A model generated the notes under the pieces. The model was given only the letters and a program-made list of their open reading frames with translations, searched no databases and was not told where the DNA came from. A DNA stretch of 64,000 nt from Escherichia coli. GTDB taxonomy: Bacteria; Pseudomonadota; Gammaproteobacteria; Enterobacterales; Enterobacteriaceae. The DNA lies in the NCBI RefSeq assembly GCF_003334335.1, contig NZ_QOWQ01000022.1; one strand, 5' to 3'. This document shows positions 25,393 through 55,020 of the stretch, piece after piece. The position numbers and the translations under genes were made by a program. Every line of letters starts with the position of its first letter. Positions within the stretch are counted from its first letter, which is position 1.

Positions 25393-26077
25393 ACAAGTGA
25401 TGCCGGTTAAGCTGGCGCAGGCGCTGGCGAATCCGTTATTTCCGGCGCTGGACAGCGCCTTACGTTCAGGACGCCATATTGGCCTCGACGAACTGGATAA
25501 TCATGCATTCCTGATGGATTTTCAGGAATATCTGGAAGAGTTTTACGCGCGTTATAACGTTGAGCTTATTCGCGCACCAGAAGGGTTCTTCTATTTACGC
25601 CCACGTTCCACCACGCTGATCCCTCGTTCCGTCTTGTCGGAACTGGATATGATGGTCGGGAAAATCCTCTGTTATCTCTATCTCAGCCCGGAACGGCTGG
25701 CGAATGAGGGGATTTTCACCCAGCAGGAACTGTACGACGAACTGCTCACCCTGGCCGATGAAGCAAAACTGCTGAAACTGGTGAACAACCGTTCAACCGG
25801 TTCAGACGTTGACCGTCAGAAGTTGCAGGAGAAAGTACGTTCTTCGCTCAACCGTCTGCGTCGTTTAGGCATGGTGTGGTTTATGGGCCACGACAGCAGC
25901 AAGTTTCGCATTACCGAATCGGTGTTCCGCTTCGGAGCCGATGTGCGTGCTGGCGACGATCCCCGTGAAGCACAGCGTCGCCTGATTCGTGATGGCGAAG
26001 CAATGCCGATTGAAAATCATCTGCAACTCAACGATGAAACCGAAGAGAATCAGCCAGATAGCGGAGAGGAAGAATAA
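25373..26077 (+). CDS. mukE: condensin subunit MukE, about 234 aa
   Basis: ORF 25346..26077(+) trimmed to [14 protein letters not shown]; overlaps mukF 3' end; stop shares 1 nt with mukB ATG. Confidence 0.85.
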
Positions 26078-29000
26078 TGATTGAACGCGGTAAATTTCGC
26101 TCACTGACGCTGATTAACTGGAACGGCTTTTTTGCCCGAACTTTTGACCTTGACGAGCTGGTCACGACGCTTTCTGGCGGTAACGGGGCGGGTAAATCCA
26201 CCACCATGGCGGCGTTCGTTACGGCGCTGATCCCCGACCTGACCCTGCTGCATTTCCGTAACACTACGGAAGCCGGGGCCACCAGCGGTTCGCGCGATAA
26301 AGGTCTGCACGGTAAGCTGAAAGCGGGTGTCTGTTATTCGATGCTCGACACCATTAACTCGCGCCACCAGCGCGTGGTGGTCGGTGTGCGTCTGCAACAG
26401 GTTGCCGGACGCGATCGTAAAGTGGATATCAAGCCGTTTGCCATTCAGGGACTGCCGATGTCGGTGCAGCCGACACAGCTGGTGACCGAAACCCTGAACG
26501 AACGCCAGGCGCGCGTGCTGCCGCTTAACGAGCTGAAAGACAAGCTCGAGGCGATGGAAGGCGTGCAGTTTAAACAGTTCAACTCCATTACTGATTACCA
26601 CTCGCTGATGTTCGATCTGGGCATCATCGCGCGTCGTCTGCGCTCCGCATCTGACCGTAGCAAATTCTATCGTCTGATCGAAGCTTCGCTGTATGGCGGG
26701 ATCTCCAGTGCCATTACCCGTTCTCTGCGCGACTACCTGTTGCCAGAAAACAGCGGCGTGCGTAAAGCGTTCCAGGACATGGAAGCGGCGCTGCGTGAAA
26801 ACCGTATGACGCTGGAAGCGATTCGTGTCACCCAGTCGGACCGCGACCTGTTTAAGCATCTGATCAGCGAAGCCACCAACTACGTGGCGGCGGACTACAT
26901 GCGTCACGCCAACGAGCGCCGTGTCCATCTCGACAAAGCCCTGGAGTTTCGTCGCGAGCTACATACTTCGCGTCAGCAACTGGCGGCTGAGCAGTACAAA
27001 CACGTCGATATGGCGCGTGAGCTGGCAGAGCACAACGGTGCCGAAGGCGATCTGGAAGCGGATTATCAGGCGGCCAGTGATCACCTGAACCTGGTGCAAA
27101 CCGCACTGCGTCAGCAGGAGAAGATCGAACGCTACGAAGCGGATCTCGATGAGCTGCAGATCCGTCTGGAAGAGCAAAATGAAGTGGTGGCAGAAGCCAT
27201 CGAACGCCAGGAAGAGAATGAGGCTCGTGCGGAAGCTGCCGAACTGGAAGTGGACGAGCTGAAAAGCCAGCTTGCTGACTACCAGCAGGCGCTGGACGTC
27301 CAGCAAACGCGCGCGATCCAGTATAACCAGGCGATTGCTGCGCTTAATCGTGCCAAAGAACTGTGCCATCTGCCGGACTTAACCGCCGACTGCGCCGCCG
27401 AATGGCTGGAAACCTTCCAGGCGAAAGAGCTGGAAGCGACTGAAAAAATGCTCTCTCTTGAGCAGAAAATGAGCATGGCGCAAACCGCGCACAGCCAGTT
27501 TGAGCAGGCTTATCAGCTGGTGGTGGCAATCAACGGCCCACTGGCGCGTAACGAGGCGTGGGATGTCGCTCGCGAACTATTGCGCGAAGGGGTCGATCAG
27601 CGTCACCTGGCAGAGCAGGTTCAGCCGCTGCGGATGCGATTAAGCGAACTGGAACAGCGTCTACGCGAGCAGCAAGAAGCTGAGCGTCTGCTGGCAGATT
27701 TCTGCAAACGTCAGGGCAAGAATTTTGATATCGACGAACTGGAAGCCCTGCATCAGGAACTGGAAGCACGCATTGCCTCTCTTTCCGATAGCGTGTCTAA
27801 CGCCCGTGAAGAGCGCATGGCACTGCGCCAGGAGCAGGAACAGCTGCAGTCTCGCATTCAGAGTTTGATGCAGCGTGCGCCGGTTTGGCTGGCAGCGCAA
27901 AACAGTCTCAACCAGTTGAGCGAACAGTGCGGCGAAGAGTTTACCTCCAGCCAGGACGTCACCGAATATCTGCAACAGTTGCTGGAGCGTGAGCGAGAGG
28001 CGATTGTTGAACGCGATGAAGTGGGCGCGCGCAAAAACGCCGTCGATGAAGAGATCGAACGTTTAAGCCAGCCTGGCGGCTCTGAAGATCAGCGTCTGAA
28101 CGCGCTGGCGGAGCGTTTTGGTGGTGTGCTGCTGTCAGAAATTTATGACGACGTTAGCCTGGAAGATGCGCCGTACTTCTCAGCGCTGTATGGCCCGTCA
28201 CGCCACGCCATCGTGGTGCCAGATCTGTCACAGGTAACTGAACACCTGGAAGGCTTGACCGATTGCCCGGAAGATCTCTATCTGATCGAAGGAGATCCGC
28301 AGTCATTCGATGACAGCGTGTTCAGCGTTGATGAGCTGGAAAAAGCGGTAGTGGTGAAAATCGCCGATCGTCAGTGGCGTTATTCACGTTTCCCGGAAGT
28401 GCCGCTGTTTGGTCGTGCTGCGCGTGAAAGCCGTATTGAAAGCCTCCATGCCGAGCGTGAAGTGCTTTCCGAACGCTTCGCCACGCTCTCCTTTGATGTA
28501 CAGAAAACTCAGCGTCTGCATCAGGCGTTCAGCCGCTTTATCGGCAGTCATCTGGCGGTTGCGTTTGAGTCTGACCCGGAAGCAGAAATCCGTCAACTGA
28601 ACAGCCGTCGCGTCGAACTGGAGCGGGCGTTAAGTAATCATGAAAATGATAACCAGCAGCAGCGTATTCAGTTTGAGCAGGCGAAAGAGGGCGTTACGGC
28701 GCTGAACCGCATTCTGCCGCGTCTCAACCTGTTGGCTGATGACAGCCTGGCGGATCGCGTCGATGAAATCCGCGAACGTCTGGATGAAGCCCAGGAAGCC
28801 GCGCGTTTTGTTCAGCAGTTTGGCAATCAACTGGCGAAACTGGAACCGATTGTTTCGGTATTGCAGAGCGACCCGGAACAGTTCGAACAGTTAAAAGAAG
28901 ATTACGCGTACTCTCAGCAGATGCAGCGCGATGCCCGTCAGCAGGCGTTTGCCCTGACGGAAGTGGTGCAGCGTCGTGCGCACTTTAGCTATTCTGACTC

Positions 29001-30537
29001 GGCAGAAATGCTTAGCGGTAACAGCGATCTCAACGAAAAACTGCGTGAACGTCTGGAACAGGCGGAAGCGGAGCGTACCCGCGCTCGCGAAGCGTTGCGC
29101 GGTCACGCAGCGCAGTTGAGTCAGTACAACCAGGTGCTGGCTTCGCTGAAAAGTTCTTACGACACCAAAAAAGAGCTACTCAACGATCTGCAACGTGAAT
29201 TGCAGGATATCGGCGTGCGTGCTGATAGCGGGGCAGAAGAGCGGGCGCGTATTCGCCGTGACGAGCTGCATGCGCAACTGAGCAATAACCGTTCACGCCG
29301 CAATCAACTGGAAAAAGCGCTTACCTTCTGCGAAGCGGAGATGGACAACCTGACCCGCAAACTGCGCAAGCTGGAGCGGGATTACTTTGAGATGCGCGAG
29401 CAGGTAGTGACCGCCAAAGCGGGCTGGTGTGCGGTGATGCGCATGGTGAAAGATAACGGCGTTGAGCGCCGCTTACACCGTCGTGAGCTGGCTTATCTCT
29501 CCGCTGATGATTTGCGTTCCATGTCGGATAAGGCGTTAGGTGCGCTGCGTCTGGCGGTGGCGGATAACGAACATCTGCGCGACGTGCTGCGCATGTCGGA
29601 AGATCCGAAACGTCCGGAGCGTAAAATTCAGTTCTTCGTGGCGGTTTATCAGCATCTGCGTGAACGTATTCGTCAGGATATTATTCGTACCGATGATCCG
29701 GTGGAAGCTATCGAACAGATGGAGATTGAACTTAGCCGTCTGACCGAAGAATTAACCTCCCGTGAACAGAAACTGGCGATCAGTTCCCGCAGCGTGGCGA
29801 ACATCATTCGCAAAACCATTCAGCGCGAGCAGAACCGTATCCGTATGCTCAACCAGGGGTTGCAGAACGTATCGTTTGGTCAGGTGAACAGCGTGCGTCT
29901 CAACGTGAACGTGCGTGAAACGCACGCCATGCTACTGGATGTGCTCTCTGAACAGCACGAGCAGCATCAGGATCTGTTTAACAGCAACCGTTTGACCTTC
30001 TCGGAAGCGCTGGCGAAACTGTATCAACGTCTTAACCCGCAGATTGATATGGGGCAGCGCACGCCGCAGACCATCGGTGAAGAACTGCTGGATTACCGCA
30101 ACTATCTGGAAATGGAAGTTGAGGTTAACCGTGGTTCCGATGGCTGGCTGCGCGCAGAGTCTGGTGCATTGTCGACCGGTGAGGCGATTGGTACCGGTAT
30201 GTCGATTCTGGTGATGGTGGTACAAAGCTGGGAAGATGAATCTCGCCGCCTGCGCGGTAAAGATATCTCTCCTTGCCGCCTGCTGTTCCTCGATGAAGCA
30301 GCGCGACTGGATGCTCGTTCTATCGCCACGCTGTTTGAATTGTGTGAGCGTTTGCAAATGCAACTCATCATCGCAGCGCCGGAAAATATCAGCCCGGAGA
30401 AAGGCACCACCTATAAACTGGTGCGTAAAGTCTTCCAGAATACCGAACACGTTCATGTCGTCGGCCTGCGAGGATTTGCGCCGCAACTCCCTGAAACGCT
30501 TCCAGGAACTGACGAAGCGCCTTCTCAGGCGAGTTAA
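26077..30537 (+). CDS. mukB: SMC-like condensin ATPase MukB, 1486 aa
   Basis: ORF 26077..30537(+); N-terminal Walker [10 protein letters not shown]; long coiled-coil; C-terminal LLFLDEA. Confidence 0.98.
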
Positions 30538-30542
30538 AATTA

Positions 30543-30570
30543 AGGCGGCAGCAATGCCGCCTTTTCTTTT
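30543..30570 (+). terminator. intrinsic terminator after mukB
   Basis: GGCGGCA-GCAA-TGCCGCC followed by TTTTCTTTTT. Confidence 0.7.
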
Positions 30571-30797
30571 TCCGAAAACTCCGTTTCTGCACTAAAAAAG
30601 TGGCACATTACGGCGCGCTTTTCTTTAAACTTCTTTACATTAGGTTATGTAAAAACGTATCGGCGTTTATATACTGAAGATAAGCCTGATGAGTAACAGG
30701 CTTGCTCGTCATACTTTCGTGAGTATTGGCGTTGTACAGGCAAGTCGTAAAATAACAGCCTGGCTATTCAGAGTATGATAAAAACAGGGGGCAAGGG

Positions 30798-32645
30798 ATG
30801 TTGCTTAATATGATGTGTGGTCGTCGGCTGTCGGCAATCAGTTTGTGCCTGGCCGTAACATTCGCTCCACTGTTCAATGCGCAGGCCGATGAGCCTGAAG
30901 TAATCCCTGGCGACAGCCCGGTGGCTGTCAGTGAACAGGGCGAGGCACTGCCGCAGGCGCAAGCCACGGCAATAATGGCGGGGATCCAGCCATTGCCTGA
31001 AGGTGCGGCAGAAAAAGCCCGCACGCAAATCGAATCTCAATTACCCGCAGGTTACAAGCCGGTTTATCTTAACCAGCTTCAACTGTTGTATGCCGCACGC
31101 GATATGCAACCCATGTGGGAAAACCGTGATGCTGTTAAAGCCTTCCAGCAACAGCTGGCAGAGGTGGCGATTGCCGGTTTCCAGCCGCAGTTTAATAAAT
31201 GGGTAGAGTTACTGACCGATCCTGGTGTTAACGGGATGGCACGCGACGTGGTGCTCTCTGATGCGATGATGGGCTATCTCCATTTCATTGCAAATATTCC
31301 GGTCAAAGGCACTCGCTGGCTATATAGCAGTAAACCTTATGCACTTGCAACGCCGCCGCTCTCGGTGATTAACCAATGGCAGCTGGCGCTGGATAAAGGT
31401 CAATTGCCTACGTTTGTTGCAGGACTGGCACCGCAGCATCCGCAATATGCGGCGATGCATGAATCGTTACTGGCCTTACTCTGTGACACCAAACCGTGGC
31501 CCCAACTGACCGGCAAAGCAACGTTGCGCCCAGGGCAGTGGAGTAACGACGTACCGGCGTTGCGCGAAATATTGCAACGCACAGGCATGTTGGACGGGGG
31601 GCCGAAAATTACTCTACCTGGCGATGACACGCCAACTGACGCGGTAGTCAGCCCATCCGCTGTTACTGTTGAAACAGCAGAAACTAAGCCGATGGATAAG
31701 CAAACGACGTCTCGTAGTAAACCTGCGCCTGCCGTTCGCGCCGCCTACGATAATGAACTGGTGGAAGCCGTTAAACGTTTTCAGGCATGGCAAGGATTGG
31801 GGGCAGATGGTGCTATTGGCCCGGCAACACGTGACTGGTTAAACGTAACGCCCGCCCAGCGTGCTGGCGTGTTGGCTCTCAACATCCAGCGATTGCGCTT
31901 GCTGCCAACAGAGCTTTCTACCGGGATCATGGTTAACATTCCGGCCTATTCGCTGGTCTACTATCAGAACGGCAATCAGGTGCTGGATTCGCGAGTCATT
32001 GTCGGTCGCCCCGATCGCAAAACGCCGATGATGAGCAGTGCCCTTAACAACGTAGTGGTAAACCCGCCGTGGAACGTACCTCCAACTCTGGCACGCAAAG
32101 ATATTCTGCCAAAAGTGCGCAACGATCCGGGATATCTCGAAAGCCATGGCTATACGGTGATGCGCGGCTGGAACAGCAGAGAAGCGATTGACCCATGGCA
32201 GGTTGACTGGTCTACAATCACGGCCTCGAATTTACCGTTCCGCTTCCAGCAGGCTCCAGGCCCACGGAACTCGCTGGGGCGCTATAAATTCAATATGCCG
32301 AGTTCAGAGGCCATTTATTTGCATGACACGCCGAACCACAATCTGTTCAAGCGTGATACACGCGCATTGAGCTCAGGCTGTGTACGAGTGAATAAAGCTT
32401 CCGATCTGGCGAATATGCTGTTGCAGGATGCAGGCTGGAATGACAAACGTATTTCTGATGCGCTGAAGCAGGGTGATACACGTTACGTCAATATTCGGCA
32501 GTCGATTCCGGTGAATCTCTACTACCTGACGGCCTTTGTTGGTGCAGATGGTCGTACCCAGTATCGTACAGATATTTACAATTATGATCTGCCTGCGCGA
32601 TCCAGCTCGCAAATCGTATCGAAAGCGGAACAATTAATCAGGTAA
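30798..32645 (+). CDS. ldtD: L,D-transpeptidase (YkuD domain), 615 aa
   Basis: ORF 30798..32645(+); signal peptide; catalytic region HDTPNHNLF...SSGCVRV. Confidence 0.93.
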
Positions 32646-32825
32646 ATGAAGTAGTTCGGGGAAATCAGTTGTCGTAATAATTAGCATGATTGGGGGCGAT
32701 TCTCTGCAGCCCCCGTCACTGCTGGGGTTGAGTCATCTTGACGTCTGCTTTACGGGCGGTTAAGGTGCCTCTTGTGCGCCAGAAGTGCATATAAACGATA
32801 ACATTGACCTGTAGACTTGATTATC

Positions 32826-33374
32826 ATGGACAAATTCGACGCTAATCGCCGCAAATTGCTGGCGCTTGGTGGCGTTGCACTCGGTGCCGCCATCCTGCCG
32901 ACCCCTGCGTTTGCAACACTCTCTACCCCACGCCCGCGCATTTTGACACTCAATAATCTTCATACCGGAGAGTCAATCAAAGCGGAGTTTTTCGATGGCA
33001 GAGGCTATATTCAGGAAGAATTGGCAAAACTTAACCATTTTTTCCGCGATTACCGCGCGAACAAAATAAAGTCCATCGACCCAGGATTATTCGACCAGTT
33101 GTATCGCCTGCAAGGGTTGTTAGGCACGCGCAAACCGGTGCAACTCATTTCCGGTTATCGTTCTATTGATACCAACAATGAACTACGCGCCCGCAGCCGT
33201 GGAGTAGCGAAGAAAAGCTATCACACTAAAGGCCAGGCGATGGATTTCCATATTGAAGGTATCGCGTTAAGCAATATTCGCAAAGCCGCGTTATCTATGC
33301 GCGCAGGTGGTGTAGGATATTATCCACGTAGTAACTTTGTGCATATTGATACCGGGCCAGCACGGCACTGGTAG
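32826..33374 (+). CDS. mepK: peptidase M15-like murein endopeptidase with Tat-type signal peptide, 182 aa
   Basis: ORF 32817..33374(+) trimmed to MDKFDANRRKLLALGG (twin-arginine-like RRKLL). Confidence 0.85.
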   Translation: MDKFDANRRKLLALGGVALGAAILPTPAFATLSTPRPRILTLNNLHTGESIKAEFFDGRGYIQEELAKLNHFFRDYRANKIKSIDPGLFDQLYRLQGLLGTRKPVQLISGYRSIDTNNELRARSRGVAKKSYHTKGQAMDFHIEGIALSNIRKAALSMRAGGVGYYPRSNFVHIDTGPARHW

Positions 33375-33400: not shown

Positions 33401-34048
33401 ATGAACTATCGTATTATTCCGGTCACCGCATTCTCCCAGAACTGTTCATTAATCTGGTGTGAACAAACCCGTCTGGCCGCACTGGTCGATCCTGGCGGCG
33501 ATGCGGAAAAAATCAAACAGGAAGTTGATGACAGCGGCCTGACACTGATGCAGATCCTGCTGACGCATGGTCATCTGGACCACGTTGGCGCAGCGGCGGA
33601 ACTGGCGCAACATTACGGCGTGCCGGTTTTCGGCCCGGAAAAAGAAGATGAGTTCTGGCTGCAAGGCTTGCCTGCGCAAAGTCGTATGTTTGGTCTGGAA
33701 GAGTGCCAGCCGCTGACGCCAGATCGTTGGCTGAACGAAGGCGATACCATCAGCATAGGGAATGTGACTTTACAGGTGTTACATTGCCCTGGGCATACGC
33801 CGGGTCATGTCGTGTTTTTTGATGATCGGGCAAAGCTGCTGATTTCTGGCGATGTTATTTTCAAAGGCGGAGTAGGGCGCAGTGACTTCCCGCGTGGCGA
33901 TCATAATCAACTGATTTCTTCAATCAAAGATAAATTGCTGCCACTGGGGGATGACGTGATATTTATTCCGGGTCACGGACCATTATCCACACTTGGTTAT
34001 GAACGCCTGCATAATCCCTTCCTGCAAGACGAAATGCCCGTCTGGTAA
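33401..34048 (+). CDS. gloC: metallo-beta-lactamase fold hydrolase (glyoxalase II-like), 215 aa
   Basis: ORF 33401..34048(+); THGHLDHVG metal-binding motif. Confidence 0.88.
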
Positions 34049-34110
34049 GGCACATAAAAAAGCCCGCTTTTAATGCGGGCCTGGATTTCTGGCAAAGTGC
34101 GCTTTGTTTA

Positions 34111-34210
34111 TGCCGGATGCGGCACGAGCGCCTTATCCGGCCTACAAAATCGTGCAAATTCAAAATATTGCAGGGGACGCGTAGGCCTGATAAGCGTAGC
34201 GCATCAGGCA
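34111..34210. repeat. REP/BIME-type extragenic palindromic element (two inverted REP units) between gloC and aspC
   Basis: GCCGGATGCGGCACGAGCGCCTTATCCGGCCTAC and inverted GCGTAGGCCTGATAAGCGTAGCGCATCAGGCA. Confidence 0.8.
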
Positions 34211-34269
34211 ATGTTGCGTTTGTCATCAGTCTCAGCCCGCTTTTCAGCGGGCTTCATTGTTTTTAATGC

Positions 34270-53899: not shown

Positions 53900-54009
53900 A
53901 ACAGGTTCGGAAAACGTTTGCGTTTTTTTTGCCGCAGGTCAATTCCCTTTTGGTCCGAACTCGCACATAATACGCCCCCGGTTTGCACACCGGGAATCCA
54001 GGAGAGTTC

Positions 54010-55020
54010 ATGTACTACCCCTTCGTTCGTAAAGCCCTTTTCCAGCTCGATCCAGAGCGCGCTCATGAGTTTACTTTTCAGCAATTACGCCGTATTACAG
54101 GAACGCCGTTTGAAGCACTGGTGCGGCAGAAAGTGCCTGCGAAACCTGTTAACTGCATGGGCCTGACGTTTAAAAATCCGCTTGGTCTGGCAGCCGGTCT
54201 TGATAAAGACGGGGAGTGCATTGACGCGTTAGGCGCGATGGGATTTGGATCGATCGAGATCGGTACCGTCACGCCACGTCCACAGCCAGGTAATGACAAG
54301 CCGCGTCTCTTTCGTCTGGTAGATGCCGAAGGTTTGATCAACCGTATGGGCTTTAATAATCTTGGCGTTGATAACCTCGTAGAGAACGTAAAAAAGGCCC
54401 ATTATGACGGCGTCCTGGGTATTAACATCGGCAAAAATAAAGATACGCCAGTGGAGCAGGGCAAAGATGACTATCTGATTTGTATGGAAAAAATCTATGC
54501 CTATGCGGGATATATCGCCATCAATATTTCATCGCCGAATACCCCAGGATTACGCACGCTGCAATATGGTGAAGCGCTGGATGATCTCTTAACCGCGATT
54601 AAAAATAAGCAAAATGATTTGCAAGCGATGCACCATAAATATGTGCCGATCGCAGTGAAGATCGCGCCGGATCTTTCTGAAGAAGAATTGATCCAGGTTG
54701 CCGATAGTTTAGTTCGCCATAATATTGATGGCGTTATTGCAACCAATACCACACTCGATCGTTCTCTTGTTCAGGGAATGAAAAATTGCGATCAAACCGG
54801 TGGCTTAAGTGGTCGTCCGCTTCAGTTAAAAAGCACCGAAATTATTCGCCGCTTGTCACTGGAATTAAACGGTCGCTTACCGATCATCGGTGTTGGCGGC
54901 ATCGACTCGGTTATCGCTGCGCGTGAAAAGATTGCTGCGGGTGCCTCACTGGTGCAAATTTATTCTGGTTTTATTTTTAAAGGTCCGCCGCTGATTAAAG
55001 AAATCGTTACCCATATCTAA
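54010..55020 (+). CDS. pyrD: dihydroorotate dehydrogenase (quinone), 336 aa
   Basis: ORF 53983..55020(+) trimmed to [23 protein letters not shown] at 54001-54005. Confidence 0.95.

Follow-up and report, generated by a model that had tools for sequence, protein, structure and literature searches.

The ldtD-mepK-gloC locus of Escherichia coli encodes a make-and-break pair for 3-3 peptidoglycan cross-links and is most likely transcribed as two units

When the enzyme that makes a chemical bond and the enzyme that breaks it are encoded side by side, are the two genes also expressed together? The question is raised by ldtD and mepK, which are neighbors on the plus strand of a 64,000-nucleotide stretch of Escherichia coli DNA (contig NZ_QOWQ01000022.1 of the RefSeq assembly GCF_003334335.1; this whole stretch is called the window here, and positions are counted from its first letter). 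LdtD is an L,D-transpeptidase (Ldt) that forms 3-3 cross-links between meso-diaminopimelic acid (mDAP) residues, mDAP3-mDAP3 (10.1101/2021.02.12.430937; PMC6428754; PMC12729407), and MepK is an L,D-endopeptidase that bears a twin-arginine translocation (Tat) signal. The original prediction took their adjacency as a sign of coordinated control of 3-3 cross-linking. Our answer, to which we assign a probability of about 0.9, is that this is the E. coli ldtD-mepK-gloC locus, that LdtD and MepK are a make-and-break pair, and that the genes most likely belong to two transcription units. That the genes are ldtD and mepK, that MepK carries a Tat signal, and that the pair is functionally linked has already been published and is textbook knowledge for this locus, so that observing the LdtD-MepK pairing and Tat export adds nothing new. 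What is added is a small refinement, consisting of a predicted internal promoter, a hairpin, the differing stress regulons, and the adjacency of Ldt and MepK genes in distant genomes.

The window contains the chromosomal ldtD-mepK-gloC locus of E. coli. According to the list of open reading frames (ORFs) and the sequence, mukB (26077-30537), ldtD, mepK, and gloC follow one another on the plus strand, and aspC and ompF lie beyond gloC on the minus strand. RefSeq gives identical ORFs and boundaries under the names ldtD, mepK, and gloC, in the order mukB, ldtD, mepK, gloC, aspC, and ompF. The positions originally predicted for ldtD and mepK agree exactly with both sources, and the gap between the two genes, put at about 180 bp, measures exactly 180 bp (32646-32825). 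In a megablast search, none of the 5,426 complete E. coli genomes lacked the 3.1-kb segment 30500-33600; in 5,422 of them, the match extended over 80% or more of the query, and the DNA identity was 100% in many.

The literature is the source for what is said here on the specificities of the enzymes, on Tat dependence, on synthetic lethality, and on membership in regulons. Production of LdtD (YcbB) is reported to be lethal without MepK (10.1101/2021.02.12.430937, citing Chodisetti and Reddy 2019), which bears out the functional make-and-break relation proposed for the two enzymes. MepK is reported to prefer 3-3 cross-links markedly (Chodisetti and Reddy 2019, via 10.1101/2021.02.12.430937); in vitro, the enzyme shows dual 4-3 and 3-3 activity (10.1101/2021.02.12.430937). 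When LdtD is the only transpeptidase, MepM and MepK form the minimal set of endopeptidases (10.1101/2021.02.12.430937; review PMC12729407). The 3-3 cross-links made by LdtD let E. coli bypass the penicillin-binding proteins, resulting in β-lactam resistance, and survive defects of outer-membrane assembly, and MepK is the hydrolase that permits growth on the 3-3 cross-linked wall. The best explanation is the following. LdtD is exported by the Sec route to the periplasm, where an acyl-enzyme at Cys528 leads to mDAP3-mDAP3 cross-links. MepK, a zinc metallopeptidase of small size and M15/LAS type, is exported via Tat, presumably in a pre-folded and zinc-loaded state (cf. PMC8262268). Its hydrolysis of 3-3 cross-links allows the sacculus to expand while LdtD is active.

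LdtD matched the NCBIfam model PRK10594 (NF007891) with 1201 bits (cutoff, 425) and contains the Pfam domains Scaffold (residues 93-224, 2.6e-17), PG_binding_1 (313-348, 3.4e-7), and YkuD (376-542, 7.7e-26). The YkuD cysteine from which the gene had been recognized is confirmed as Cys528 in the motif SSGCVRV (residues 525-531). The alignment of residues 31-615 to YcbB from the Protein Data Bank (PDB ID: 6NTW) runs end to end and scores 1334.6 bits (E = 0). The start of the match at residue 31 fits the cleavage of a 30-residue Sec signal. The order of the three domains and Cys528 are shared with LdtD of E. coli K-12 (YcbB, b0925; 6NTW), and the comparison revealed no difference; the gene is the same.

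MepK scored 274.9 bits (cutoff, 185) against the NCBIfam equivalog "peptidoglycan L,D-endopeptidase MepK" (NF053624) and matched the Pfam families Peptidase_M15_2 (DUF882, PF05951; 3.3e-61) and Peptidase_M15_3 (PF08291; 7.4e-13). An in-frame TTG at 32817 would give a protein of 185 instead of 182 amino acids. The candidate zinc ligands His133, Asp140, and His173 are invariant across 54 homologues of 40-66% identity (alignment A1), and the H133A mutant of MepK is reported to be catalytically dead (10.1101/2021.02.12.430937). A sequence search of the PDB with MepK detected no solved relative and returned only spurious, short, low-complexity matches to leucine-rich repeats; for this reason, the fold was probed with AlphaFold2 (AF2) and Foldseek. 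The AF2 model built from the 54-sequence alignment had a predicted local distance difference test score (pLDDT) of 91.3. The matches listed by Foldseek against the PDB were M15/LAS zinc peptidases (1LBU, LdcB, VanXY, VanY, ChiX, and phage endolysins) and Hedgehog N-terminal domains, which are structurally related to M15/LAS (best E = 7e-4, probability 1.0). The Pfam matches, the model, and the Foldseek result agree in assigning an M15 fold to the protein, as anticipated from the sequence. Compared with E. coli MepK (YcbK, b0926), the equivalog cutoff is exceeded, the published signal peptide is identical, and His133 is the published catalytic residue; again, no difference emerged, and the gene is the same. 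MepK has the core fold and the H-x6-D...H zinc site in common with M15/LAS peptidases such as Streptomyces albus 1LBU, LdcB, VanX/VanY/VanXY, ChiX, and the phage L-Ala-D-Glu endolysins. The relationship is distant, with 12-33% identity and modest template modeling scores (TM-scores, ~0.3-0.4), and MepK differs from these enzymes in cutting the mDAP-mDAP cross-link, in having a Tat signal, and in belonging to a separate Pfam family (Peptidase_M15_2/DUF882).

The transcription of the pair was approached through the DNA between the genes. One genome per GTDB species was scanned with a smaller seed alignment (A2), the 54-sequence A1 being too diverse, and the best 80 loci, all from Enterobacterales and with MepK 69-98% identical, were compared. 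In each of the 78 loci whose upstream DNA is included, the gene immediately before mepK, on the same strand, is ldtD, and gloC lies directly downstream of mepK in 80 of 80. The ldtD-mepK spacer is usually 170-200 bp long, and both this length and the layout of hairpin, promoter motif, and stem-loop are kept from Escherichia to Serratia, Pectobacterium, Pantoea, and Sodalis. Taken whole, the E. coli spacer forms a more stable predicted fold than shuffled sequence does (z = -4.15).

The first element is a GC-rich hairpin behind the ldtD stop codon, with the core GGGGGC-N11-GCCCCC at 32692-32714. A hairpin of -10 kcal/mol or stronger was present in 72 of 77 loci, 35-56 nt past the ldtD stop (median, -19 kcal/mol). 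Its position and structure are kept across Enterobacterales, its sequence varies among genera, and several other genera, unlike E. coli, have a T-run at the hairpin. In E. coli, it is probably the 3' end of the ldtD transcript or a leaky terminator. The second element is a sigma-70-like promoter motif, TTGAC[GT]-N17-TA[AT]GGT, found in 68 of the 78 loci; the two hexamers are separated by 17 nt in 67 of these 68, and the median distance from the -10 element to the ATG is 59 nt, the same as in E. coli. The third is a small stem-loop near the predicted +1 of mepK, which starts 7-8 nt past the -10 element in most loci and is possibly a 5'-terminal hairpin that stabilizes the mRNA. RNAalifold predicted no pairs in the mepK 5' untranslated region, where MAFFT had misaligned clades, and the stem-loop was therefore evaluated by per-sequence folding (mean z = -1.2 for 61 sequences, a modest value). 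Rfam gave no match within the ldtD-mepK spacer, RefSeq annotates nothing there, and no discussion of a mepK promoter was found in the literature searched. The spacer was also considered as a repeat element; this was rejected, as it is single-copy in E. coli.

The published regulons of the two genes differ. The ycbK-ycbL (mepK-gloC) operon is induced by sigma-E, 9.7- and 6.6-fold, in a list in which ycbB (ldtD) does not appear (PMC2731931, Table 2), and this induction was also seen in two earlier studies (PMC2731931). The Cpx regulon includes ldtD (review PMC12729407). Overlapping direct repeats resembling a CpxR box are found upstream of ldtD and agree, weakly, with the published Cpx control (PMC12729407); the search for such boxes lacks specificity (75 matches in the 64-kb window) and is weak evidence alone. 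Another weak CpxR box, at 32749-32763 before mepK, was put down to chance. We propose that ldtD would be transcribed from its own Cpx-responsive promoter and end at the GC-rich hairpin, and that mepK-gloC would start at the conserved promoter in the spacer and respond to sigma-E overexpression. This two-unit architecture and the functions of the hairpins are deduced from the sequence and its conservation.

The strongest alternative is a single ldtD-mepK-gloC operon, in which most mepK expression would come from transcription that started at the Cpx-controlled ldtD promoter and read through, and synthase and hydrolase would rise together. Several observations speak for it and weigh against two separate units. 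The genes are on the same strand, 180 bp apart, and the generic scan of 32646-32825 called no terminator; the E. coli hairpin is without a U-tract, so that transcription may run on from ldtD into mepK. The adjacency is conserved, and in one distant lineage (L090, see below) the two ORFs overlap, so that co-transcription does occur there. The mepK promoter is itself predicted from conservation: its -10 element TAAGGT matches 3 of 6 consensus positions and was missed by the generic promoter scan, whose one weak match in 32646-32825 overlaps the mepK start codon. The motif is missing from 10 of the 78 loci, all 10 of Morganellaceae. The canonical sigma-E promoter GAACTT-N15-17-TCNAA had no match in the window, and a search by eye gave only poor candidates, whose start sites would lie within the ORF; the sigma-E effect may thus be indirect or act via a non-canonical site.

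A promoter with a fixed 17-nt spacing is nevertheless embedded between the genes in most Enterobacterales loci, and a structured hairpin is conserved right after ldtD. The sigma-E arrays list ycbK-ycbL without ycbB (PMC2731931), and the Cpx account of ldtD is silent on mepK (PMC12729407). Moreover, within the same genomes (L003-L081), MepK is far more conserved (69-98% identity) than LdtD (48-94%), which suggests that the two proteins are under partly independent constraints. Simple co-transcription of ldtD and mepK is therefore unlikely, and we would give the single operon about one chance in five against the two-unit arrangement. On the question behind the suggested check, promoter and terminator mapping of the spacer, the sequence comparison gave a mixed picture: a conserved promoter motif and a conserved hairpin were found, and no canonical terminator was called. 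Likewise, the idea of coordinated control is sustained in so far as the adjacency is conserved and the enzymes are functionally linked; it is not sustained as shared transcription, against which the spacer hairpin, the promoter, and the different regulons argue.

A combination of the two arrangements can also be envisaged, in which the ~180-bp spacer, kept in length and composed of the hairpin without a U-tract, the weak promoter, and the stem-loop, would set the ratio of the enzymes by adding partial, Cpx-driven read-through from ldtD to a basal or sigma-E-responsive mepK-gloC promoter. This is a tentative idea that we regard as rather improbable. If true, the supply of the hydrolase would track the induction of the synthase without strict co-transcription, and two envelope-stress responses, Cpx and sigma-E, would be integrated at one locus. 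No mention of mepK together with rpoE was found in the literature searched, and the link between the older sigma-E arrays and the function of MepK, described in 2019, may be under-noticed. The features described here may be of use in the design of reporter and deletion constructs at the locus and, through the gene neighborhood, in the annotation of DUF882 proteins.

Does the adjacency have a functional meaning, or is it merely an inherited gene order? All 80 scanned loci are from Enterobacterales, and the flanking genes mukB, gloC, and aspC are syntenic as well, as expected if the order had simply been inherited. More distant contexts were examined on the contigs encoding nine MepK homologues, eight of them short (44-49% identical in the aligned region) and one long. 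A YcbB-type Ldt is encoded immediately upstream of the MepK homologue in three of the nine, with otherwise unrelated neighbors; the gap is 240 bp in L082 and 164 bp in L091/L092, and in L090 the ORFs overlap by 8 nt. In these three contexts, MepK is 47-48% and LdtD 32-36% identical to the E. coli proteins. The remaining six have no Ldt neighbor, and the pair is thus a recurrent, not a universal, gene neighborhood. Its recurrence in distant contexts supports functional coupling. Three independent contexts with different flanks that keep a YcbB-type Ldt directly upstream are far above the expectation for a domain present in only a few genes per genome, and the genetic dependence published for the pair is direct (10.1101/2021.02.12.430937). 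Inheritance of gene order without functional meaning is accordingly very improbable.

The spacing between mepK and gloC is ~16-45 bp in most of the 80 loci and up to ~330 bp in a few. GloC is cytoplasmic and MepK periplasmic, yet their genes are neighbors in the Enterobacterales loci. In L082, one of the distant genomes that keep the Ldt-MepK pair, gloC is ~3 kb away.

MepK begins with a twin-arginine signal, MDKFDANRRKLL...AFA. The peptide singled out in the original prediction, NRRKLLALGGVALGAAILPTPAFA, is exact and corresponds to residues 7-30. The signal is tripartite, with an n-region (MDKFDANRRK), an h-region (LLALGGVALGAAILP; mean Kyte-Doolittle value, 2.14), and a c-region (TPAFA). Residues 8-12 (RRKLL) fit the TatP-type pattern RR.[FGAVML][LITMVF]; the strict consensus S/T-R-R-x-F-L-K has no match in MepK, where the sequence is N-R-R-K-L-L-A. 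To place this in the family, a HMMER scan of 1.84 billion cluster representatives was used, which gave 6,125 MepK relatives; among the best 150, which were examined, 114 are short full-length forms and 29, about a fifth, are long forms of 400-730 amino acids. Two consecutive arginines occur within the N-terminal 90 residues of 109 of the 114 short homologues and the TatP-type pattern in 98, compared with only 19 of 114 for the pattern in a control segment of the same proteins. The textbook SRRxFLK is present in many short homologues, and Arg8 and Arg9 are invariant in alignment A1.

The Tat assignment thus stands, and it is also in line with the literature. The identical peptide is listed as an E. 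coli Tat signal (PMC7549933, Table 2), and for both E. coli and Salmonella, YcbK has been listed among the predicted Tat substrates (PMC3027627). The β-lactam sensitivity of Salmonella tat mutants is explained by four substrates, of which MepK is one, and deletion of mepK contributes to the tat-mutant phenotype (PMC8262268). A MepK fusion to the OmpA signal, which directs export via Sec, fails to complement a tat deletion, and the authors suggested that MepK, a zinc enzyme, must fold before export (PMC8262268). A modeling paper on the Klebsiella orthologue reported no Tat motif or signal peptide (PMC3927764); this is contradicted by the conservation within the family and by the later Tat literature. 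That the N-terminus is an ordinary Sec signal with two arginines by chance, for which the departure of NRRKLLA from the strict consensus, the Klebsiella paper, and the Sec-like N-termini of the long homologues could be cited, is highly unlikely in view of the arginine pair kept throughout the short forms, the Tat listings for E. coli and Salmonella, and the non-complementing OmpA fusion (PMC7549933, PMC8262268). In E. coli and Salmonella, AmiA and AmiC are also peptidoglycan hydrolases with twin-arginine signals, and the four proteins AmiA, AmiC, SufI, and MepK jointly account for the β-lactam sensitivity of tat mutants (PMC8262268). They are amidases, whereas MepK is an endopeptidase, and they remain functional when re-routed via Sec, whereas MepK does not (PMC8262268).

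The long forms (P0148, P0158, P0165, P0211, and 25 more) have an N-terminal DUF882 domain behind a Sec-like, not Tat, N-terminus, followed by a low-complexity C-terminal extension rich in Ala, Pro, Ser, and Gln and a conserved tail. They were considered as MepK-Ldt fusions and rejected as such, since phmmer found no similarity to LdtD and their C-terminal halves are of low complexity; in P0148, Pfam finds M15 domains only.

Of the features described above, the protein identities and domains, the motifs, the fold, the synteny, and the conservation of the hairpin and promoter sequences were shown in this analysis itself. Positions are collected in Table 1.

Table 1. Positions of genes, motifs, and predicted regulatory features in and around the ldtD-mepK-gloC locus of the window
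Feature	Position	Strand	Remarks
mukB intrinsic terminator	30542-30563	+	9-bp GC stem followed by a T-run; inverted repeat I2
CpxR-box-like overlapping direct repeats upstream of ldtD	30624-30648	-	GTAAA-N5-GTAAA, 1 and 2 mismatches
Pair of overlapping matches to a sigma-70-like promoter, upstream of ldtD	30726-30779	+	9/12 each; candidates only
ldtD (ycbB), L,D-transpeptidase	30798-32645	+	615 amino acids; Sec-type signal peptide, residues 1-30
SSGCVRV codons	32370-32390	+	Residues 525-531; catalytic Cys528; from the sequence
GC-rich hairpin	32682-32724	+	37 nt past the ldtD stop; -21 kcal/mol; no U-tract
mepK sigma-70-like promoter (predicted)	32738-32766	+	-35 TTGACG, 32738-32743; 17-nt spacer; -10 TAAGGT, 32761-32766
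Small stem-loop	32773-32791	+	TGTGCGC-CAGAA-GTGCATA; near the predicted mepK +1
mepK (ycbK), M15/DUF882 zinc L,D-endopeptidase	32826-33374	+	182 amino acids from the annotated ATG
Tat signal peptide	32826-32915	+	MDKFDANRRKLLALGGVALGAAILPTPAFA; RR at 32847-32852; predicted cleavage after AFA
Candidate MepK zinc ligands	33222-33224, 33243-33245, 33342-33344	+	H133, D140, H173; H-x6-D...H triad
gloC (ycbL)	33401-34048	+	215 amino acids; metallo-β-lactamase-fold glyoxalase II; 26 bp past mepK
Intrinsic terminator downstream of gloC	34234-34253	+	Likely end of the mepK-gloC unit

The strong terminator behind mukB isolates ldtD from mukB transcription. Between these two genes, in the ldtD promoter region, the E. 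coli wastewater isolates SW070919 and SW070917 (L094) carry an IS4 element. In the pig isolate F2_81, only positions 88-180 of the spacer query are matched, and the annotation at this place shows an IS481-family transposase; an insertion at about window position 32733, upstream of the conserved mepK promoter, is suggested by this.

No recognizable Shine-Dalgarno sequence precedes the mepK ATG (32800-32828; …CCTGTAGACTTGATTATCATG). The stretch before the ATG hardly varies within Enterobacteriaceae (CCTGTAGACCTGATTATCATGGA), a hint that translation may be initiated in a non-standard way or that a regulatory element lies here.

The intergenic region between gloC and aspC (34054-34188) contains an Rfam match to the small RNA ES036 (CssrF) above the gathering score (34146-34188, plus strand) and a sub-threshold match to naRNA4 (CssrE) (34106-34142, minus strand). 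Both are flanked by a pair of crossed terminators, one on the minus strand (34060-34082) and the other on the plus strand (34234-34253). Elsewhere in the window, Rfam gave a match to a PyrD leader (97.9 bits; 53942-54015, plus strand), which is to be expected in this region of the chromosome of E. coli.

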